This document shows, piece by piece, positions 11,961 to 25,410 of a stretch of 37,161 bases of DNA. Origin of the DNA: a virus. Position 1 is the first letter of the stretch. The number at the start of each line of letters is the position of its first letter. A program made the translations under genes and the position numbers. Below the pieces are notes generated by a model. It saw only the letters and a list, made by a program, of their open reading frames with translations. It was not told the DNA's origin and searched no databases. Where the stretch lies: UHGV virus genome UHGV-0110762; one strand, 5' to 3'.

Positions 11961-12791
11961 ATGAATCTGGACAATGTTTTAAAGTTTTTTGCGCCTAAAG
12001 GCATGCACATATCAGATACCAGTAGAGCGACAGCCAGTGAACAACTGACGGTTACTGATGTAATGGCTGCATTGGGGATGACTCAGGCCGATGCGGGGAT
12101 CGGGCTGGCAATGTTTTTAGGTAAAGCTGGTATCAGCAGCCAGGACAGAGAGGCGTCAATAACCTGGCTAACTGAGTACGCGAAAGAGCATGCGCCCATG
12201 GCCATTCGCAAAGCATCAGGGAAAAAGTTTCCCCTCTGCATGCGTATCCTTGCCCGGTTTGCCTATAACGATTATTCCTCATCAGCAGCTGATTGTGTGG
12301 CATGCCCAAAATGTAGTGGTAAAGGGTTGCTTACAACCACTAAAACCGTGACTAAAAGCCATTACACAATGCGATTGCCACAATGGGCAAAAGACCTGAG
12401 ACAGTCACCATCTGACTTTGAGGTAAAGCGAGAAGTAACTGACTCCGAGCAAAGTTTATGTTCGCGATGCCATGGTACCGGAAAGTTAAGTAAGCGATGC
12501 CAGTGTGGCGGAACTGGCAAGACGGTTGACCGTAAAGCGACAGAACTGCAGGGCGTACCAGTTTACAAAGAATGTAAGCGCTGCGAAGGGCGGGGATACA
12601 GCAGGCCAAAATCATCGGTTGCCTATCGAGGTGTTTTTTCTGAGTTGCCGAGTCTGCCTGACCGAACGTGGCGTTATAGCTGGAAACCATTCTATGAAAG
12701 CCTGGTGACCAAATGTTTCCAGGAGGAGAGTTATTCAAGCTCTCAACTGAATCGGGTGACTAAAAGTGAAGATGTGATAAATATCGCGTAA
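11961..12791 (+). CDS. Putative late-gene antiterminator (Q-like by position) with four DnaJ-type CxxCxGxG zinc-finger repeats
   Basis: ATG 11961 with GGAGA RBS; CPKCSGKG, CSRCHGTGK, CQCGGTGK, CKRCEGRG repeats; lies directly upstream of a strong promoter plus short-transcript terminator and the lysis genes, the position of lambda Q. Confidence 0.45.
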   Translation: MNLDNVLKFFAPKGMHISDTSRATASEQLTVTDVMAALGMTQADAGIGLAMFLGKAGISSQDREASITWLTEYAKEHAPMAIRKASGKKFPLCMRILARFAYNDYSSSAADCVACPKCSGKGLLTTTKTVTKSHYTMRLPQWAKDLRQSPSDFEVKREVTDSEQSLCSRCHGTGKLSKRCQCGGTGKTVDRKATELQGVPVYKECKRCEGRGYSRPKSSVAYRGVFSELPSLPDRTWRYSWKPFYESLVTKCFQEESYSSSQLNRVTKSEDVINIA

Positions 12792-12834
12792 TTTAGCGTC
12801 ATGATGTTTGCAATGTTGCCGTATTTGTGTATAT

Positions 12835-12862
12835 TTGACATCAATGATGGGCTTTGTATAAC
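12835..12862 (+). promoter_or_regulatory. Strong sigma70-type promoter (TTGACA-16 bp-TATAAC), candidate late promoter pR'
   Basis: Perfect -35 TTGACA at 12835-12840, 16-bp spacer, TATAAC at 12857-12862, 44 bp after the Q-like gene stop. Confidence 0.55.
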
Positions 12863-12880
12863 TATCGATCACTATGATAA

Positions 12881-12903
12881 CCTCACCTCGGTGGGGTTTT
12901 TTT
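12881..12903 (+). terminator. Rho-independent terminator (candidate tR') about 20-35 nt downstream of the promoter
   Basis: Hairpin CCTCACC-TCG-GTGGGG followed by TTTTTTT; promoter plus immediate terminator is the arrangement Q acts on in lambdoid phages. Confidence 0.5.
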
Positions 12904-12914
12904 ATGGTGATAGT

Positions 12915-13451
12915 ATGGAACTGACTAAAGAAAATGTTGCATTAATTGCTGCTTTGGGGATTTTTGTGGGTACATTGATAACTTCTCTTACAAGTTACCT
13001 CCAGAACAGTAGTAGGCAGTCGCATGAGTGGCGCTCAGAAAGAAATAGAAGGAAAATTGAAAAGGGTGAACAGCTTTATGAGGCATTAATACTTTATAAA
13101 AAATTGCTTTTTGCCAATCATATGAGCTGGATAAATTGTATTGATGGGTGTTTTAAATCTGAGGACATTGGCGATAAATCAGACGAAATTCTCAGTAAAA
13201 ACCCTGAGTATAAAGGAGTTGGTGATAGAATTATTTTAATCTCTGGTGTTTATTTTCCTGAGATTAGCGTTATGTTTGATGAATCTAGAAAATTGCTGAA
13301 ACCAGCCAATTCTGTTTTCTTCAAAATACAGTCAGGTGAAGTTGACGATAAGAAATTGGCGAAGAATATAATTCTAAACGCTGGTCATAATTTTGATAAG
13401 GAGGCTAATAAAATGTTGGACTGTTTATCGAAAGAGATTAGATCGTTGTAA
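12915..13451 (+). CDS. Moron: membrane-anchored hypothetical protein (179 aa, one N-terminal TM helix)
   Basis: AT-rich codon usage distinct from surrounding phage genes; N-terminal hydrophobic segment VALIAALGIFVGTLITSLTSYL followed by a charged soluble domain; between tR'-like terminator and holin. Confidence 0.5.
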   Translation: MELTKENVALIAALGIFVGTLITSLTSYLQNSSRQSHEWRSERNRRKIEKGEQLYEALILYKKLLFANHMSWINCIDGCFKSEDIGDKSDEILSKNPEYKGVGDRIILISGVYFPEISVMFDESRKLLKPANSVFFKIQSGEVDDKKLAKNIILNAGHNFDKEANKMLDCLSKEIRSL

Positions 13452-13469
13452 CAACTCAAAATTAACGAA

Positions 13470-13493
13470 GGTCACCAGATGGTGGCCTTTTTT
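13470..13493 (+). terminator. Rho-independent terminator after the moron gene
   Basis: GGTCACCA-GA-TGGTGGCC hairpin followed by TTTTTT. Confidence 0.6.
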
Positions 13494-13539
13494 ATTCCCC
13501 TCGTTCTGAGAGGACTCACAGCAATAAAGAGGGGGCTAA

Positions 13540-13926
13540 ATGTCCGATCCGATTTCCGGTACTGGGCTGGCTGGTGGTGTCCTGACGGGAGCTAGCGTCT
13601 ATGGATTTCTGTCCGGAACCGATTACGGCGTGGTGTTTGGCGCATTTGCCGGAGCTGTATTTTACATTGCAACAGCTGCGGACCTTAGTGCAACGCGTCG
13701 GCTGGCGTATTTTGTCGTGTCCTACATCGCCGGGATCATCTGCTCAGGGCTGGTGGGTTCAAAGCTGGCTGACTGGACTGGTTACAGTGATAAGCCTCTG
13801 GATGCCATCGGTGCCGTAATCGTTTCGGCTTTAGCTGTCAAAATCCTGACGTTCCTGAACAACCAGGATGTCGGCTCGCTGGTGGCGCTGATAACGCGCC
13901 GGGGAGGTTCAGGTGGTACTAAATGA
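13540..13926 (+). CDS. Holin (multi-TM small membrane protein)
   Basis: AGAGGGGG RBS; 128 aa with several Gly/Ala-rich hydrophobic helices; first gene of the lysis cassette upstream of the endolysin. Confidence 0.6.
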   Translation: MSDPISGTGLAGGVLTGASVYGFLSGTDYGVVFGAFAGAVFYIATAADLSATRRLAYFVVSYIAGIICSGLVGSKLADWTGYSDKPLDAIGAVIVSALAVKILTFLNNQDVGSLVALITRRGGSGGTK

Positions 13927-14815: not shown

Positions 14816-15085
14816 ATGGGACTTGAAATGATTATCGGCCTGATTGTTGCCGCGCTGGCAGCAATTGCAGGTGCCTTTGGTCTGGGTAAATCTCGCGGTA
14901 CCAGTATCGCAGAAACAAAAGCGGACCAGCAACGCACTGAAGAGCGTGCAGCAGCTACAGAAGCGGTAGCCGAACGCCGGGTAGAAACAACAAAAGGAGC
15001 CAGGGATGTACAGCAGACTGTTAATCATCTTCCTGATGACGATGTTGACCGCGAGTTGCGCGAAAAATTTACCCGCAAAACCTGA
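14816..15085 (+). CDS. i-spanin (Rz-like), N-terminal TM helix plus charged periplasmic domain
   Basis: ATG 14816 after GAGG; MGLEMIIGLIVAALAAIAGAF TM segment followed by Glu/Arg-rich helical region; directly after the endolysin. Confidence 0.6.
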   Translation: MGLEMIIGLIVAALAAIAGAFGLGKSRGTSIAETKADQQRTEERAAATEAVAERRVETTKGARDVQQTVNHLPDDDVDRELREKFTRKT

Positions 15086-15248
15086 AGTAACGGACACGGC
15101 CTGTGACTGGGTGAGCATCATCTACCTCACTGAGCACGATATTGCCGTGCTGGATAAACAGACGAAGCGGGACATATTGGCGCACAACAAATCAGTGCAG
15201 GCTAACTGCATGAAGGAGCCAGGTCGTGAACGTAGAGAACCTAAGTGA
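15006..15248 (+). CDS. o-spanin (Rz1-like) lipoprotein candidate, overlapping the 3' end of Rz in another frame
   Basis: Signal-peptide-like N-terminus ending LTASC (lipobox-like Cys); overlapped Rz/Rz1 architecture. Confidence 0.45.
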   Translation: MYSRLLIIFLMTMLTASCAKNLPAKPEVTDTACDWVSIIYLTEHDIAVLDKQTKRDILAHNKSVQANCMKEPGRERREPK

Positions 15249-15456
15249 CGCGCATTACATCTATAACGAGATGAAAGAGCTACAGCGACAGAAAGGCATA
15301 CTGGAAAGCGGTGCCGGACTTGGGGTGACAATCCAGTCGACCTATCAGGATAATGCCTTTCTTGATGCCATACGCCCGCATGCAGTGGATGAACTTGATC
15401 GGCGTATAGAGGAGAAAAAAGATGTACTGGTTAATTTGGGCCTCTCCTTCTCTTAA
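15226..15456 (+). CDS. Hypothetical small protein (76 aa)
   Basis: GTG start 7 nt after a perfect AAGGAG RBS (15213-15218). Confidence 0.45.
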   Translation: MNVENLSDAHYIYNEMKELQRQKGILESGAGLGVTIQSTYQDNAFLDAIRPHAVDELDRRIEEKKDVLVNLGLSFS

Positions 15457-15472
15457 ACTATCATGCATTACA

Positions 15473-15495
15473 GCAGGCACGTATCAGGTGCCTGC
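15473..15495. terminator. Palindromic hairpin between convergent genes (possible bidirectional terminator, no clear U-tract)
   Basis: GCAGGCAC-GTATCAG-GTGCCTGC perfect 8-bp inverted repeat between the stops of 15226..15456 (+) and 15502..15942 (-). Confidence 0.35.
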
Positions 15496-15501
15496 CATCA
15501 G

Positions 15502-15942
15502 TTAATAGGATATTTTATCGGAAGACTTGAGCGCTTTTAATGTAGCTTCAAGTATATCGAGAAATAGATCAACATCTTCATAATCATAAGATGGATTAGG
15601 TTTGTACTCCCCAATGTAAACCAACCCATTTTTACCTAAAAAGAAGCTAATTACTTCCTTGTTATTTTCATCAGTTGAGTCAGTTGCAACGAACTTCAAA
15701 AGAGGGGCTTCATTGATGACTACCAGTTTCTCATTGAAAACGAGTTCTAACCCATATGTTGAAAGTTCTAGGGTTAGTCTGTTTTCTGCATCTTGATTGA
15801 AAATCAAGGTGTTAGAAGTTAAAGAACTTTCTTTGCATGAGTCAATAACGTTTTTCTTAAGTTTGATTGCTTTTTCATCTAAAGCCTTTTTGTGTTCTGC
15901 ACACTTAATAACCTTACGGACGTCTAAATAGTCGATGCTCAT
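15502..15942 (-). CDS. Moron: hypothetical acidic protein (146 aa), opposite strand to the late operon
   Basis: ATG 15942 with AGAGG RBS; strongly AT-rich; no TM segment; no recognisable motif. Confidence 0.5.
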   Translation of the reverse strand: MSIDYLDVRKVIKCAEHKKALDEKAIKLKKNVIDSCKESSLTSNTLIFNQDAENRLTLELSTYGLELVFNEKLVVINEAPLLKFVATDSTDENNKEVISFFLGKNGLVYIGEYKPNPSYDYEDVDLFLDILEATLKALKSSDKISY

Positions 15943-16033
15943 AATTAAACCTCTTATTGATGAGTTAATAAACATTGAGCCATTAAGGCCAATATCAATA
16001 CTAAAGAATGAGAAAGTTTAAGTTATTAGAGTT

Positions 16034-16321
16034 ATGTCTCAATTTGATGCCACTTCGAACACAAAAATGAACCTAACAAGAGGTCATATGCGTCTAACTG
16101 TATTAGATGACGATCCCGGCAGGAAGATTAATCTCGGTGTAGAGCGATACGCTGTTTTTCTCGATGGTATAGAGGTTAAGCATGTCTTCACTGCTGACGA
16201 TGAGAAGGGCGAAGTAATCGCAGCCGTTCCTGATGAGCGTGGTTATATGACGACAGAGAACGGTGAAGTGAAGCGGCATACGCTTCACGGCTCTGTGAGG
16301 ATTGAACCATGCCAGCGTTAA
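16034..16321 (+). CDS. Hypothetical small protein (95 aa, or 77 aa from ATG 16088 which has an AGAGG RBS)
   Basis: ORF divergent from the 15502..15942 gene across an AT-rich intergenic region. Confidence 0.4.
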   Translation: MSQFDATSNTKMNLTRGHMRLTVLDDDPGRKINLGVERYAVFLDGIEVKHVFTADDEKGEVIAAVPDERGYMTTENGEVKRHTLHGSVRIEPCQR

Positions 16322-16446
16322 TCCCTCGCGCATGTCGCAAGAGAGGTTGTCCCGGTACGACTACGGACCGTTCAGGCTACTGCGCTGATCACAAAGACTT
16401 TACCGCAGGCCATGTAGTCTTCGCGCTTCAGATGGCTCGGTGGTAG
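16309..16446 (+). pseudogene. Probable N-terminal remnant of a phage HNH endonuclease (45 codons)
   Basis: Translation MPALIPRACRKRGCPGTTTDRSGYCADHK matches the characteristic N-terminus (C...GC......YC..H) of HNH endonucleases found next to terminase genes, but the ORF stops after 45 codons and lacks the HNH core. Confidence 0.35.
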
Positions 16447-16478
16447 GATTATCCTCTTTTTAAATAAGGGATATATCA

Positions 16479-16778
16479 ATGAAAAAGACAATTCTGGGTG
16501 TCATTGCTTTGGGTCTGGTCGGTTGCGCGACGGTGGGTAAAGACTTTTCGGAAGCAGATGTCACCTCAATCCAAAAGGGGGTTACGACTGAGCAGGCTGT
16601 TTTGCAGAAGTTCGGTAAGCCAACCTCAGTAACTGCCGATTCCGAGGGCAATAAGATTTATGGTTGGACCTACGCTCATGCAACAGCGTTCAGCGTGGGG
16701 CAGGGCAAATCGCTCGTCGTCAAAGTAAATAAGGACGGCGTGGTGGATTCATACATCGTGAGCACTTCAAGACCGTAG
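16479..16778 (+). CDS. Lipoprotein with SmpA/OmlA (BamE-like) domain; moron in the bor-equivalent position
   Basis: Signal peptide MKKTILGVIALGLVGC with lipobox LVGC; mature domain pattern G.T..QV...G.P.......Y.W.Y.......L.V.F...G.V as in BamE/OmlA. Confidence 0.7.
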   Translation: MKKTILGVIALGLVGCATVGKDFSEADVTSIQKGVTTEQAVLQKFGKPTSVTADSEGNKIYGWTYAHATAFSVGQGKSLVVKVNKDGVVDSYIVSTSRP

Positions 16779-16931
16779 CATGCTATTTGCAGCCTCGCTC
16801 TCGCGGGGCTGATAGTTAACATCATCATGTGAAGACACATGCTCATGTCAATTACCCCTCAGCGCACCCGGCGCAACGAACGTAATACCTATTCTTTTAA
16901 CCTGCTTATCAGGCATAACCAGAGGCCCAAT

Positions 16932-17273
16932 ATGGCTAAAAACTACTACCAGGACGGCAATACAATGGACTGGCATAACGGGACCACAAAAGATGTGGTG
17001 TCAGGTCAACCGGTGATTGTTGGTGCGATCATCGGTATCGCTCAGCACGATATCGCCGCCAGCGGTGATGGTGTTCTGATGATGACCGGAGTATTCGTCT
17101 TGCCGAAGGTTGCAGCTGAGACCTAGCAGCGCGGGGTCCGACTCTGGCTGACGAAAGATGGCAAGTTGACCAGTAGCTCGAAGGATGGCACTGATGACAA
17201 CGCCGTTGCAGGCACTGCGTGGATTACCACCAATGCAAACGACCCTGAGGGTCGCGTTCGCCTCGGCTTCTAA
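16932..17273 (+). pseudogene. DUF2190 / phage cement (head decoration)-like paralog interrupted by an in-frame amber codon (TAG 17124-17126); uninterrupted product ends at 17126
   Basis: ATG 16932 with AGAGG RBS; translation aligns residue-for-residue with the decoration gene at 23859..24182 (LPKVAAET*QRGVRLWL vs LPKLAADDIAQGKTVYF) and the frame stays open after the TAG to a TAA at 17271-17273. Confidence 0.5.
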
Positions 17274-17380
17274 CCATCAGCCCCATCCAGCGCCCAGACT
17301 AGCCGGGCAACCCCGCCAGATCCCCACCTCAACTGATAACCATTCTCATATGGACGGGTCCTCCCGGAGGGGTGGCCTGC

Positions 17381-17410
17381 CACGAGGCGGCGGGCACGCG
17401 GAAAACGGCT
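17381..17410. other. Candidate cos (cosN-like) site upstream of the terminase small subunit
   Basis: AGGCGGCGGGCACGCGGAAAACGGC resembles the lambda cohesive end region GGGCGGCGACCTCGCGGGTTTTCGC (recalled); position immediately 5' of the Nu1-like gene. Confidence 0.3.
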
Positions 17411-17501
17411 AGTTTTCGTGATCCAGGGTCATCATCATCATGTGCATAACTGTATGATTTTTATCAGTGACGTTTTGCAATGATGTCGAATCGTTCAAAA
17501 A

Positions 17502-18002
17502 GTGTTCACCATCATGGACCAGGAGCTTTCCACCCTGAAGCTGAACATCAATCAGCTGGCAGGGATCACCGGCGTTCATCGCCAGACCGTTGCCGCCAGG
17601 CTTAAGCAACTCGAGCCTGCGCTGGGCAGCAACAACAAACTCAAACTCTACCTCATCACTGATGTGCTCACCGAACTGATGGCGCCCGTCGTCGCGTCCA
17701 GCGCCGAAGATATGACGCCCTCGGACAGGCTCGCCCACTGGAAAGCGGAAAACGAGCGGCTCAAATTTGAGCAGGATACCGGCCAGTTAATCCCGGCAGA
17801 TGAGGTGGCCCGTGAATTTTCTGTCATGGCAAAAGCTGTGGTGCAGGTGCTGGAAACGTTACCGGACATTCTGGAGCGTGACTGCGCGCTGAACCCCGCA
17901 GCTGTCAGCCGCGTGCAGAGTGTGATTGACGATCTTCGCGACCAGATTGCGCAGCGCGTGCTGGACGCAGAACCGGAGGAGGATGAGCCAGAGGAGGACT
18001 GA
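17502..18002 (+). CDS. Terminase small subunit, lambda Nu1-like (start may be ATG 17514)
   Basis: N-terminal HTH-like KLNINQLAGITGVHRQTVAARL as in Nu1; overlaps the start of the large subunit gene (TGATG). Confidence 0.7.
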   Translation: MFTIMDQELSTLKLNINQLAGITGVHRQTVAARLKQLEPALGSNNKLKLYLITDVLTELMAPVVASSAEDMTPSDRLAHWKAENERLKFEQDTGQLIPADEVAREFSVMAKAVVQVLETLPDILERDCALNPAAVSRVQSVIDDLRDQIAQRVLDAEPEEDEPEED

Positions 18003-20322: not shown

Positions 20323-21821
20323 GCGCCCTGGATAATCTGATAGGCATGTTTTCCCCGGGCTGGAAAGCGGAGCGCCTGAAGTCGCGCCTGATGATCCAGG
20401 CATATGAGGCTGTCATTCCTACCCGGACGCACCGGGCAAAACGCGAAAACCGCTCCGCGAATCAGTTGACGCAATTCGGCGGGCGATCGCTGCGCGAACA
20501 AGCCCGGTGGCTTGACTGTAACCACGATCTGGTGATCGGCCTCCTTGATAAACTCGAAGAGCGCATTGTGGGGGCAAAAGGCATCATCGTGGAGCCGCAG
20601 CCCCTGATGAGTAACGGGGGCATCGCTACTGACCTTGCTACACAGATCCGCGCCAAATGGGCGGAGTGGTCCGTTTCTCCCGATGTTACCGGGCAGTTTA
20701 CCCGACCAGTGCTTGAGCGCCTGATGTGCCGGACCTGGTTACGTGACGGCGAGGTGTTCGCGCAGCTGGTCAGTGGCACCGGGAACGGTCTGTCGCCGGT
20801 GGCAGACATTCCTTTCTGGATTGAGGCTCTGGAACCGGATTTTGTGCCGATGGAGCGGACAGAGCCGGGTCAGAAGTTATGCCAGGGCATTTACCTGAAT
20901 GACTGGGGCCGCCCGACCCGATACATGGTCTACAAAAACCTTCCGGCGGAAGGCATGCGCCAGGGAGATACCAAGGATATTCAGGCGGAGAATATGCTTC
21001 ACCTGAAGTTCATGCGCCGCCTGCATCAAATCCGGGGTAACTCACTGCTTGCCGGGGTGCTGATGCGTCTTTCGGCGCTGAAGGAGTACGAGGACGCCGA
21101 ACTGACCGCTGCCCGCATTGCTGCGGCACTGGGCATGTTCATTAAAAAAGGTGATGGCCAGACTTATGACGAAGGCAGCAGCGGTCAAAGGGAGCTAAAC
21201 ATCGAGCCCGGCATGCTGTTTGACGATCTCCGCCCGGGTGAAGACATCGGCATGATCAAGTCAGACCGACCAAATCCCAACCTCGAAACTTTCCGTAATA
21301 GCCAGCTACGTGCTGTAGCCGCTGGTTCGCGCGGTAGCTTTTCAAGTATCGCCCGTAACTACGACGGAACATACAGCGCGCAGCGCCAGGAGCTGGTGGA
21401 GTCAACCGAAGGCTATTTCATTCTTCAGGACGCATTCATCGCGGCGATCACACGACCTATGTACCGGGCCTGGCTCAGGATGGCGATTGCTTCAGGCGAG
21501 ATCACGGTCCCGAAAAATGTCGATAAAGCCACGCTCTTTAGCGCCGTGTTCTCCGGGCCCGTTATGCCCTGGATTGACCCGGTCAAAGAGGCGAACGCCT
21601 GGAAAATTCTGCTGCGTGGCGGTGCTGCGACAGAGAGTGAATGGGTGCGCGCCCGCGGCGCAAATCCTGATGATGTTAAGCGCCGCCGTAAGGCGGAGGT
21701 TGACGAGAACCGTAAACAGGGGCTGGTGTTTGATACCGACCCGGCAAATGACAAAGGAGACACTCGTGTCCAGGAAGCAAAACCGGGTAAAGAACCGCCC
21801 GAAAGCCCAGGCAAAAAATAG
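20319..21821 (+). CDS. Portal protein, lambda gpB family
   Basis: 500 aa following the W-like gene with ATGA overlap; size and order as lambda B. Confidence 0.85.
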   Translation: MSALDNLIGMFSPGWKAERLKSRLMIQAYEAVIPTRTHRAKRENRSANQLTQFGGRSLREQARWLDCNHDLVIGLLDKLEERIVGAKGIIVEPQPLMSNGGIATDLATQIRAKWAEWSVSPDVTGQFTRPVLERLMCRTWLRDGEVFAQLVSGTGNGLSPVADIPFWIEALEPDFVPMERTEPGQKLCQGIYLNDWGRPTRYMVYKNLPAEGMRQGDTKDIQAENMLHLKFMRRLHQIRGNSLLAGVLMRLSALKEYEDAELTAARIAAALGMFIKKGDGQTYDEGSSGQRELNIEPGMLFDDLRPGEDIGMIKSDRPNPNLETFRNSQLRAVAAGSRGSFSSIARNYDGTYSAQRQELVESTEGYFILQDAFIAAITRPMYRAWLRMAIASGEITVPKNVDKATLFSAVFSGPVMPWIDPVKEANAWKILLRGGAATESEWVRARGANPDDVKRRRKAEVDENRKQGLVFDTDPANDKGDTRVQEAKPGKEPPESPGKK

Positions 21822-23778
21822 CTGGTTCCGTATGCAGGCCAGTTCGGAAAACGAAGCCGAAATCTACATCTACGACGAGATCGGCTACTGGGGGGTAACG
21901 GCGAAGCAGTTCGTCGCAAACCTTAAGGCGCTGGGCGATGTCACCCACATCAAACTGCATATCAACTCCCCTGGTGGCGATGTCTTTGACGGTATCGCCA
22001 TTTTTAATGCCCTGAAATTCCACGGCGCGGCGATCACCGTTTATATCGACGGTCTGGCTGCCTCAATGGCATCAGTCATCGCCATGGTAGGAAACCCGGT
22101 CATCATGCCGGAAAACACCATGATGATGATCCACAAGCCGTGGGGTTTTGCGGGTGGTGATGCTGATGACATGCGCGACTACGCCGACCTGCTCGACAAA
22201 GTGGAGTCGGTGTTGATCCCGGCATACGCGCAGAAGACGGGAAAAAGCACCGAAGAAATTGCGGCAATGCTGGAGGAAGAGACCTGGCTCTCCAGCACTG
22301 AATGTCTGGAGCTGGGCTTCGCTGACCAGGTCACACCATCCTTGCAGGCAATGGCCTGCATCCATTCGAAACGTATTGAGGAATTTGAAAAGATGCCAAA
22401 CAGCATTCGCAACATGGTCACCCCGCCGCGCAATACCGCTACGCGCGAAACACAGCAGCCAACTGTCACCCAGCCGGCTCCGGCGGCAGGTGCCAGCGAA
22501 ACTGATATCCGTGCGCAGGTTATTGCGGAGCAAAAGGCACGCGTGAACGGTATTCAGGATCTCTTCGCCATGTTCGGCGGAAAGCATCAGGAGCTGCAGG
22601 CTAAATGTATTGCCGATCCAGAGTGCTCGGTCAGCCAGGCGAAAGATGTTCTTCTGGCAGAGCTCGGTAAAAATGCCACGCCGTCCAACACCACTACGCA
22701 GGGGCAGGCCCATGTGTATGCCGGGAACGGTAACTTTGTTGGCGACGGGATCCGCCAGGCGCTGATGGCGCGTGCCGGTTATGAAAATGTTGAGCGTGAC
22801 AACGTCTATAACGGTATGACGCTGCGCGAATACGCCCGCATGTCCTTGACCGAGCGCGGCATCGGGGTCTCCAGTTACAACCCGATGCAGATGGTCGGTT
22901 TTGCGCTGACGCACAGCACCTCCGATTTTGGCAATATCCTGCTCGATGTCGCCAACAAAGCGCTGTTGCAGGGCTGGGATGAAGCGGCAGAGACCTTTGA
23001 ACTCTGGACCAAAAAAGGCCAGCTCTCTGACTTCAAAACGGCGCATCGCGTCGGCATGGGGGGCTTCCCGTCCCTGCGTCAGGTGCGAGAGGGCGCGGAG
23101 TATAAGTACATCACCACGCAGGATAAGGGTGAAACCATCGCGCTGGCTACTTACGGTGAGATCTTCTCCATCACCCGCCAGGCCATTATCAACGATGACC
23201 TGAACCAGCTGACTGACGTTCCGATGAAGATGGGCCGCGCTGCAAAAGCCACTATCGGTGACCTGGTCTACGCCGTGCTGACCGGTAACGGGAAACTTTC
23301 AGATGGCAAGGCGCTCTTCCATGCTGACCATGCCAACCTTTCAGCTGGCGCCATCAGCGTTGACAGCCTGGATAAGGCCCGCCAGAACATGCGCAAGCAG
23401 AAAGAGGGCGAGCGCGCCCTGAACATTCGTCCGGCCTACATGCTGGTTCCGGTGGGTCTGGAAACATTAGCCAGCCAGACCATTAAGTCAGCAAGCGTGA
23501 AAGGGGCTGATATCAATGCCGGCGTGGTGAACCCGCTGCAGAACTTTGCCGAAGTGATCGCAGAAGCGCGTCTGGATGACGCCGACCCGGCGGCCTGGTA
23601 TCTGGCTGCCGCACAGGGCACCGATACCATCGAAGTGGCGTACCTCAATGGCATTGATGCCCCGTACATCGACCAGCAGGAAGGTTTCACCACTGATGGT
23701 GTTGCGACGAAAGTCCGCATCGATGCTGGTGTGGCGCCGCTGGATTATCGCGGCCTGGCGAAATCATCCGGTAAGTAA
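21766..23778 (+). CDS. Prohead protease (ClpP/S14-like) - scaffold - major capsid protein fusion; start uncertain (GTG 21766 after AAGGAG, or ATG 21748)
   Basis: N-terminal WF..AEIYIYDEIGYWG...INSPGGDVFDGIAI ClpP-like protease signature; C-terminal about 300 aa capsid-like; ORF track start 21487 lies deep inside the portal gene and is rejected. Confidence 0.75.
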   Translation: MSRKQNRVKNRPKAQAKNSWFRMQASSENEAEIYIYDEIGYWGVTAKQFVANLKALGDVTHIKLHINSPGGDVFDGIAIFNALKFHGAAITVYIDGLAASMASVIAMVGNPVIMPENTMMMIHKPWGFAGGDADDMRDYADLLDKVESVLIPAYAQKTGKSTEEIAAMLEEETWLSSTECLELGFADQVTPSLQAMACIHSKRIEEFEKMPNSIRNMVTPPRNTATRETQQPTVTQPAPAAGASETDIRAQVIAEQKARVNGIQDLFAMFGGKHQELQAKCIADPECSVSQAKDVLLAELGKNATPSNTTTQGQAHVYAGNGNFVGDGIRQALMARAGYENVERDNVYNGMTLREYARMSLTERGIGVSSYNPMQMVGFALTHSTSDFGNILLDVANKALLQGWDEAAETFELWTKKGQLSDFKTAHRVGMGGFPSLRQVREGAEYKYITTQDKGETIALATYGEIFSITRQAIINDDLNQLTDVPMKMGRAAKATIGDLVYAVLTGNGKLSDGKALFHADHANLSAGAISVDSLDKARQNMRKQKEGERALNIRPAYMLVPVGLETLASQTIKSASVKGADINAGVVNPLQNFAEVIAEARLDDADPAAWYLAAAQGTDTIEVAYLNGIDAPYIDQQEGFTTDGVATKVRIDAGVAPLDYRGLAKSSGK

Positions 23779-23858: not shown

Positions 23859-24182
23859 ATGAAGAATTTCGTACAGGATGGTCACACTATCGATTTGACC
23901 AACTCGGGGTCGGCGGTGATTGCCAGTGGCACGCCGGTTGCCGTTGGGGATGTTCTGGCGATCGCTATCGCTGATATTGCCGTCGGCGAAACTGGTACGG
24001 GCCTCACCAGTGGCGTAGTCCAGTTGCCGAAGCTGGCGGCGGATGATATCGCCCAGGGCAAGACCGTTTACTTCAAAAGCGGGAAAGTGCAACTGGAGGC
24101 CACCGGCGCGACCCCCGCAGGGAAAGCCTGGCAGGCTGCCGGTGCGAACGCCGCCGCCGTACTGGTTAAGCTTAATGGCTAA
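23859..24182 (+). CDS. Head decoration / cement protein (DUF2190 family)
   Basis: ATG 23859; MKNFVQDGHTIDLTN...GVVQLPK...VYFKSGKV...VLVKLNG pattern of the family; located just after the capsid gene. Confidence 0.7.
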   Translation: MKNFVQDGHTIDLTNSGSAVIASGTPVAVGDVLAIAIADIAVGETGTGLTSGVVQLPKLAADDIAQGKTVYFKSGKVQLEATGATPAGKAWQAAGANAAAVLVKLNG

Positions 24183-25015: not shown

Positions 25016-25410
25016 AACATCCACTGATCCGCCTGGCGGTTCTGGATGCGTTGAAAGCTGGCATTACCGATCCTGTAACGTGGTCTGATGGCCGTCCCGC
25101 TGTACTTGAGTCCGAAGATCTCCCTGCTGTCGCCGTCTATATCACTGACGCGCAGTCCACGGAGGAATCCATCGACGAAGATATCTGGCGCGCCACGCTT
25201 CATATCGAGGTGTTCCTGAAAGCGAGCGAAACGGATACAGCGCTGGATACCTGGATGGAAAGCAAAATCTATCCCCAGCTTAACGCACTCCCCGGCCTTT
25301 TCCCCTTAATCGAAACCATGTCAGCTCAGGGCTATGACTATCAGCGCGATGACGAAATGGCGACATGGGGATCGGCTGATCTCAAATACTCAATTTCATA
25401 CGTAATGTGA
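25012..25410 (+). CDS. U: Tail terminator protein U
   Basis: [17 protein letters not shown]...[22 protein letters not shown]...LHIEVFL closely resembles lambda gpU. Confidence 0.85.

Follow-up and report, generated by a model that had tools for sequence, protein, structure and literature searches.

The virus genome UHGV-0110762, a stretch of 37,161 nucleotides that is referred to here as the window, raises the question of why a gene for a capsid cement-like protein should stand just before the cohesive-end site (cos), outside the head genes, and why its reading frame should be interrupted by a single in-frame amber codon with the rest of the frame still open. A preliminary description, made from the sequence alone, considered a very recent nonsense mutation, a sequencing error or expression dependent on amber suppression, and argued against an old, decayed pseudogene.

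The frame consists of ATG and 63 sense codons, a TAG at 17124-17126 (codon 65), 48 further sense codons and a natural TAA at 17271-17273, as had first been described (Table 1). The conceptual product matches the PF09956 HMM with 69.6 bits (gathering score 24) over model positions 2-103 of 103, and the N-terminal fragment of 64 residues, which is on record as P0039, still matches the family by itself at positions 2-58 of 103. NCBIfam gave no meaningful match, and a sequence-profile search of the PDB gave a single weak match, the Pam3 cement protein (E 0.17). The similarity to the head decoration gene of the same window, noticed at the outset, proved to be real: BLASTP aligned the two proteins with 40% identity over 77 residues (E 2e-16) or, without composition adjustment, with 36.7% over 109 residues (E 4e-19), and both match PF09956.

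All orthologues begin with MAKNYY, which places the start at 16932; an alternative upstream ATG at 16839, opening an ORF of 95 residues, was rejected as the start. On aligning the upstream regions, it was observed that a purine run resembling a Shine-Dalgarno sequence (AGGAGG, AGGTGA or AGGT) occurs at the same place in diverged orthologues, so that start codon and ribosome-binding site are kept although the upstream sequence diverges. The same alignment revealed no conserved promoter, and a promoter and terminator scan around the gene returned nothing above shuffled expectation, with no plus-strand promoter ahead of it. An Rfam scan of the window found no match. PADLOC likewise found no match for the cement-like protein or its three upstream neighbours, and a role as a component of a defence system is unsupported.

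Table 1 Features of the window that bear on the pre-cos cement gene, numbered from the first nucleotide of the window
Feature	Position	Strand	Description
Opposite-strand ORF	15502-15942	-	146 aa, in a 41% GC island between spanin and lipoprotein
Upstream lipoprotein	16479..16778	+	99 aa, signal peptide, lipobox LVGC (MKKTILGVIALGLVG|C), phrog_3135
Shine-Dalgarno AGAGG	16921..16925	+	6 nt ahead of the ATG at 16932-16934
Pre-cos cement gene	16932..17273	+	113 codons, PF09956 (Phage_cement_2/DUF2190), in-frame TAG at codon 65
N-terminal 64 codons and premature TAG	16932..17126	+	Sole product expected without suppression
Former Dcm site	17122..17126	.	CCTGG in the parent allele (L014 and others), CCTAG in the window
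G-to-A transition, TGG (Trp65) to TAG	17125..17125	+	Sole difference from intact relatives in the 342-nt gene
Open C-terminal 48 codons and natural TAA	17127..17273	+	3 of 8 predicted beta strands; 11 invariant or nearly invariant residues besides Trp65
cosN (inferred)	17385..17396	.	12-nt cohesive end AGGCGGCGGGCA
Terminase small subunit, first gene past cos	17514..18002	+	phrog_141, E 9e-67; PF07278 in the identical locus L004
ClpP-type protease/scaffold/major capsid fusion	21766..23778	+	phrog_133, 1118 bits; PF00574 and PF25209
In-module cement/decoration paralogue, clade B, intact	23859..24182	+	PF09956, 80.7 bits; groups with the single copy of mEp043

The window represents a lambdoid, mEp043-type prophage. 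Ahead of cos it encodes, in this order, a Q-type antiterminator (PF03589), two holins, a GH19 endolysin, a spanin, a low-GC ORF on the opposite strand, a lipoprotein and the cement-like protein, and cos follows. Beyond cos lie the genes for the small and large terminase subunits, a W-like gene, the portal gene, the gene for a fusion of ClpP protease, scaffold and capsid, the in-module cement gene and lambda-like tail genes. The head genes are ~76% identical at the DNA level to those of phages mEp043, mEp213, LLS and Flotzy, and the fusion protein is the capsid that cement proteins would bind. The cohesive end AGGCGGCGGGCA was located by aligning the window with phage LLS, for which a 12-nt cohesive end, GGGCGGCGCGCT, is annotated, and the block is conserved in mEp043 and in the related loci L001, L003 and L010. 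With the cement gene ~110 nt upstream of cosN and the small terminase gene starting at 17502 or 17514, the location upstream of cos was confirmed. Cos separates the gene from the capsid gene, which lies ~4.5 kb farther downstream, and the cement gene so lacks the in-module, capsid-adjacent position that is a feature of PF09956 genes.

This layout, in which the cement gene is followed by ~240 nt containing cos and then by the small terminase gene, recurs in L001-L003, L007, L010, L011, L014-L023, L030 and L033. It holds despite different lysis cassettes and intervening accessory genes (L003, L030, L033), and the pre-cos cement gene is conserved in prophages of Leclercia, Kluyvera, Buttiauxella, Atlantibacter and E. 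coli. Since the layout is kept where lysis and accessory genes differ, it was concluded that the gene travels with cos and the head module and not with the lysis module.

The earlier remark on the unusual location of a structural gene away from the head module stood only in part. Two cement copies in one record were found in none of the 30 phage records matched in a collection of 50,697 records; the pre-cos position, however, is conserved across several genera and, in a circular or concatemeric genome, directly adjoins the head genes. In such a replicating genome, the gene would lie directly upstream of the terminase and head genes and, by analogy with lambda, would be read from a Q-antiterminated late transcript that runs on through cos to the head genes. 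If transcription runs in this way, its place outside the head module would be an artefact of the linear prophage map.

The lipoprotein gene upstream co-travels with the pre-cos gene in L001, L002, L007 and L014-L023 and is absent in L003. Its product shows a weak BamE/SmpA-like similarity, and phrog_3135 is a family of unknown function. Pfam, PHROG and PADLOC gave no match for the ORF on the opposite strand, which has the appearance of a typical moron cassette; it is present in L014, L015, L017 and L023 and missing in L016 and L019-L022. The position of the lipoprotein gene matches that of lambda bor, an accessory ('moron') gene between the lysis cassette and cos. The cement gene shares with bor-type morons this neighbourhood, an adjoining lipobox lipoprotein and a nearby low-GC ORF on the opposite strand, but it differs in that no promoter or terminator of its own was detected, it stays linked to cos and the head module, and its product is of the virion type and not a factor in host fitness.

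Copies of a direct repeat, GT(T/C)A(A/T)CATCATCATGTG, stand on either side of the gene and cos (16815-16831 and 17428-17444). The downstream copy, ~37 nt past cosN, is conserved in LLS, mEp043, L001, L003, L030 and L033 and is probably a cosB-side element; the upstream copy occurs in the closest relatives only (the window, L001 and L007). A 14-nt inverted repeat (16805-16818 and 17271-17284, 93% complementary) flanks the gene almost exactly. It was rejected as a cassette boundary, as it is not conserved in L001 and ~0.2 such pairs are expected by chance per 1.5 kb, and it is probably fortuitous. In Buttiauxella gaviniae ATCC 51604, two contigs of one genome (L008 and L009) each end ~120 nt past the pre-cos cement gene, which suggests two related prophages whose common cos/terminase region broke the assembly.

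The ancestral state of codon 65 was sought among relatives of the gene. A search of protein collections returned 38 of them, many exactly 113 residues long and up to 88% identical. In their alignment, position 65 is a nearly invariant Trp in the pre-cos orthologues that cover it, and the in-module paralogue alone has Ile. The protein P0040, of 113 residues, is found on 142 contigs, is named from E. coli drafts and shares a cluster with P0039; it carries Trp at position 65 and is identical to the conceptual product of the window at all 112 other residues. DNA of near relatives was retrieved by way of the window's own large terminase subunit, the exact sequence of which is present on many contigs. 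It was found that nine distinct near-identical prophages (L014-L017 and L019-L023; 98.6-99.9% identical over 14-16 kb) differ from the window within the 342-nt gene at one base only, having G at 17125. A tenth near-identical locus, L029 from a JGI metagenome (99.86% identical over 10.9 kb), also has G there, and the intact alleles match the window gene at 341 of 342 nt. These comparisons show that the ancestral codon is TGG and that the event is a single G-to-A transition to TAG; among the candidates put forward earlier as one step from TAG (CAG, TGG, TAC, AAG and GAG), the alignment of homologues thus singled out TGG.

Other collections were also scanned. GTDB genomes contained only 7 loci, all with the intact gene, and the JGI metagenome scan gave one contig, L029, with the TGG allele; a scan of IMG/VR with a degenerate 40-mer for either allele found no match. 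Neither megablast with 16780-17480 nor blastn with the gene detected the element in 5,426 complete E. coli genomes, whereas draft records labelled E. coli do carry it. Two further anomalous alleles of the pre-cos gene were seen in metagenomes, namely the frameshifted P0048 (80 aa, JGI; ending ...RLWREGWQVDQ) and P0035 (87 aa), the C-terminus of which is scrambled; they may be sequencing errors or further independent knockouts. In the NCBI drafts L015, L017 and L022, the portal gene is uncalled at 12318-13820 of the locus and the protease-capsid ORF is called longer (702 aa), which suggests a frameshift or a differing call in those assemblies.

A gap-free comparison of 13.7 kb with the five closest intact relatives showed three private differences of the window. 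The two besides the nonsense change, at 25023 and 25531, are both synonymous, and no other gene is damaged. As there are only three private SNPs in 13.7 kb, two of them synonymous, the mutation is very recent and not the mark of an old pseudogene, and it sits on an otherwise intact prophage. The first of the readings put forward initially is thereby upheld, given that a parent allele exists at a distance of one base, and the open downstream frame needs no explanation beyond recency.

The base that changed also points to a mutational origin. In the parent allele, the codon stands in the context ACCTGGC, and G17125 pairs with the inner C of the bottom-strand CCAGG. Dcm methylates the inner C of CCWGG on both strands, deamination of which leads to a T:G mismatch that very-short-patch repair corrects only partly; in E. 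coli and Salmonella genomes, the C-to-T rate at this inner C is raised roughly 8-fold (PMC9520237). The parent gene has only two CCWGG sites, that is four such positions, and a change at two of the four yields an amber codon (Gln7 and Trp65). The observed change is thus one of 2 Dcm-type changes among 31 possible nonsense substitutions, and a change of this type would arise by chance in 2 of 31 cases, or in 2 of 13 if transitions alone are counted. As the changed base pairs with the 5-methylcytosine of a Dcm site, unrepaired deamination is the likeliest origin, by which Trp65 TGG would have been turned into TAG; on this circumstantial evidence, and assuming a Dcm-positive host, the chances that it happened in this way are judged to be about even or slightly better. 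Classic amber hotspots were reportedly described by Coulondre and Miller at the CCAGG (Dcm) sites of lacI. The present case resembles them in being a C-to-T change on the strand that holds the inner C of CCWGG and in creating TAG, but the codon hit is TGG (Trp), on the opposite strand, and not CAG (Gln).

Whether the intact gene matters to the phage was judged from its orthologues. Among those of Leclercia, Kluyvera, Buttiauxella and draft E. coli, dN/dS is 0.03-0.17, with dS ranging from ~0.3 to more than 1 or saturation, and the pre-cos orthologues are at least as constrained as the in-module copy. By this measure, the intact pre-cos gene is under strong purifying selection. No paper on a pre-cos or duplicated cement gene was found in the literature on DUF2190, PF09956 or capsid cement protein, where a 'DUF2190 family protein' is listed, and no more, in two E. 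coli papers; nor was a description of a conserved, constrained pre-cos cement gene in phages with a cognate one found in the searchable literature.

The tree of cement proteins consists of two clades. Clade A unites all pre-cos copies with the single in-module copies of the myoviruses Hafnia phage yong2 (62% identical to the window protein) and Citrobacter phage Chris1 (50%) and of L012, L013 and L032; the capsid fusions of such in-module bearers (yong2, L012 and L013) are only ~54-56% identical to that of the window. The in-module copies of window-type prophages fall into clade B, together with the single copy of mEp043. The locus L031 has a yong2-type capsid (70% identical to that of yong2), the stop codon of which overlaps the start of the next gene (TAATG). 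It has no cement gene after the capsid gene, and its pre-cos gene, 67% identical to that of the window, is the only one in the 9.2 kb examined. The simplest history would be that a clade-A cement gene was relocated to the pre-cos position in a yong2-like lineage, and that later recombination brought in an mEp043-type head module bearing its own clade-B cement gene.

Compared with the in-module decoration genes of mEp043, mEp213 and yong2, the window gene belongs to the same family, encodes a protein in the same size range (107-116 aa) and falls in the all-beta fold class of solved decoration proteins; its identity to the mEp043 protein is 43%. It differs in lying before cos, across the packaging site from the capsid gene, in coexisting with a divergent in-module paralogue (37%) and in being interrupted by TAG. 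Phage mEp043, with one cement copy and no pre-cos gene, has a capsid fusion that is 84.5% identical in protein to that of the window, and the pre-cos gene is therefore probably accessory. As mEp043 forms virions without it and the in-module paralogue is intact here, its loss is probably tolerated. The strong purifying selection nevertheless implies that the intact gene does something useful, so that the loss could in fact be costly.

The likely effect of the truncation was deduced from an AlphaFold2 model of the 88%-identical orthologue P0001, computed with a 31-sequence alignment (pLDDT 90.1, pTM 0.79), which shows an eight-stranded all-beta protein. The top Foldseek matches in the PDB were all capsid decoration or cement chains, led by phiCD508 gp48 (9gb0/9gay; TM 0.75/0.73, E 5e-5/2e-4) and Pam3 gp6 'Cement' (8hdt; TM 0.66). 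Capsid chains of HFTV1, Sf11, T1 and TW1 were matched as well, and lambda gpD and phage 21 SHP overlapped in part. Both phiCD508 gp48 and Pam3 gp6 form trimers on three-fold or quasi-three-fold axes and clamp neighbouring capsomers (PMC11948020, PMC9942802). By analogy, the window protein would be trimeric and capsid-binding, although its sequence identity to the two is only 13-15% and the longer Pam3 gp6 (166 aa) has an additional domain at its C-terminus. With lambda gpD and phage 21 SHP (PF02924), it shares a structural overlap of ~60 residues (TM ~0.42) and the class of head-stabilising trimers, but these belong to another Pfam family, of which the window protein, with its partial fold match, is not a member; in addition, gpD is essential for full-length lambda genomes and its gene lies between C/Nu3 and E. 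The stop at codon 65 removes strands 70-73, 91-96 and 106-111 and, besides Trp65, the conserved residues R67, G68, L71, G77, G94, W97, T99, V109, R110, L111 and G112. For a small single-domain protein, the model suggests that the fragment of 64 residues is most likely unfolded and inactive, and the allele would then be a null.

Considered as a whole, the locus very probably carries a recent TGG-to-TAG nonsense allele of a second, accessory PF09956 cement gene, a loss that is probably tolerated and has a probable origin at a Dcm site. That second gene is the last one before cos, at the right end of the prophage; the intact in-module gene would make the loss bearable, and the allele would persist as a minority variant.

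Among the alternatives, full-length expression through amber suppression (by a host supE- or supF-like tRNA) or through leaky or programmed read-through, with a TAG that is regulatory or tolerated, is unlikely. In its favour, the downstream frame is fully intact and the base after the stop is C, reportedly the weakest fourth-base context in studies of termination in E. coli. Recency fully explains the intact frame, however, and none of the 38 orthologues or of the 10 near-identical relatives has the stop, which therefore is not a conserved recoding site. The tRNA scan found no tRNA gene in the 37-kb window, and the RNA downstream shows no structure out of the ordinary, the 100 nt from the TAG folding no better than shuffled sequences (z = +0.39). 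Moreover, the lipoprotein, portal and tail-chaperone genes naturally end in TAG, and a strong suppressor would add 17, 34 and 3 residues to their products. Common amber suppressors insert Gln, Tyr, Ser or Leu and would not restore the nearly invariant Trp. The earlier suggestion of suppression hence found no support, with the stop confined to this lineage. Reassignment of the genetic code was rejected: TAG ends 3 of the 27 other called genes, and that at 17124-17126 is the only one in frame. In the genes examined, all four TAG codons (16776, 17124, 21819 and 26604) are followed by C (TAGC), in what is a small sample.

It is also conceivable that the knockout was selected, the second cement protein being costly or a target in the host. 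The TAG allele occurs in several samples, the lineage has only three private changes, among them the nonsense change, and P0048 represents a separate frameshifted allele. Against these points, selection elsewhere in the clade is strongly purifying, the confirmed TAG contigs make up one identical clone, which gives no sign of recurrence or of a spread into other backgrounds, and a hotspot mutation arises without selection. Nothing in the data requires an adaptive loss, which is considered very unlikely.

A sequencing or assembly error, by which this record would show a spurious TAG in place of a true TGG, might be suspected because the intact allele greatly outnumbers the other (P0040 on 142 contigs, P0039 on 5-7) and because L006, one of the three places shown for the 64-residue product, ends one base before the codon. 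This contig (ENA ERZ28574855 scaffold_28194) corresponds to 14957-17123 of the window with 99.7% identity, and it was rejected as evidence for the TAG, since it stops ahead of the codon; its end could reflect a branch of the assembly graph at a polymorphic site in that sample or a coincidence. Support for the TAG allele comes from assembly-level contigs. A contig of ENA ERZ1303386 (3 samples) is 100% identical to the window over 20.2 kb and one of Logan SRR29027556 over 10.6 kb, the TAG included in each, and both assemblies also carry the two private synonymous SNPs. The window may itself derive from one of these assemblies, and the confirmed TAG contigs, all 100% identical to it, could be one clone sampled repeatedly. 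The agreement of two assemblies with the window across the TAG excludes an isolated error of a read or an assembly, and the error reading as a whole, raised at the outset, is highly improbable.

A pseudogene long in decay, or a non-coding piece of a head module that recombination left behind, would suit a gene in the moron-rich region between lysis genes and cos, away from the capsid gene, but such a reading, which the preliminary description had rightly set aside, has practically nothing left to commend it when there is no other lesion in a gene that matches its intact alleles at all but one position, when start and Shine-Dalgarno sequence are preserved and when dN/dS among orthologues is so low.

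The amber codon is most simply explained as an ordinary, very young loss-of-function allele from a known mutational hotspot, and its annotation should name a nonsense variant of a DUF2190/capsid cement gene, or a pseudogene of that kind, and no recoding event. As for the intact gene, a clade-A cement gene, of the type found with yong2-type myovirus capsids that are only ~55% identical to that of the window, is very strongly constrained next to cos in siphoviruses that already have a cognate cement protein. This raises the possibility, to be entertained with considerable reserve, that the pre-cos gene is not a redundant spare and that its product is a second capsid protein with a function of its own or a factor in interference between phages. 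If the function is distinct, the TAG lineage would offer a natural knockout for testing whether the two cement paralogues occupy the same sites on one capsid or divide them up; if the gene serves interference, one cement paralogue could poison the capsids of competing phages. Natural pairs of TGG and TAG alleles, three SNPs apart in 13.7 kb, are available for testing the role of the second cement protein. In L031, the only cement gene detected lies before cos, which shows that, in functional terms, the head module can extend to both sides of the packaging site. Phage biologists should find modest interest in a clade of enterobacterial prophages that have two divergent cement genes, of which the one immediately ahead of cos is strongly conserved.
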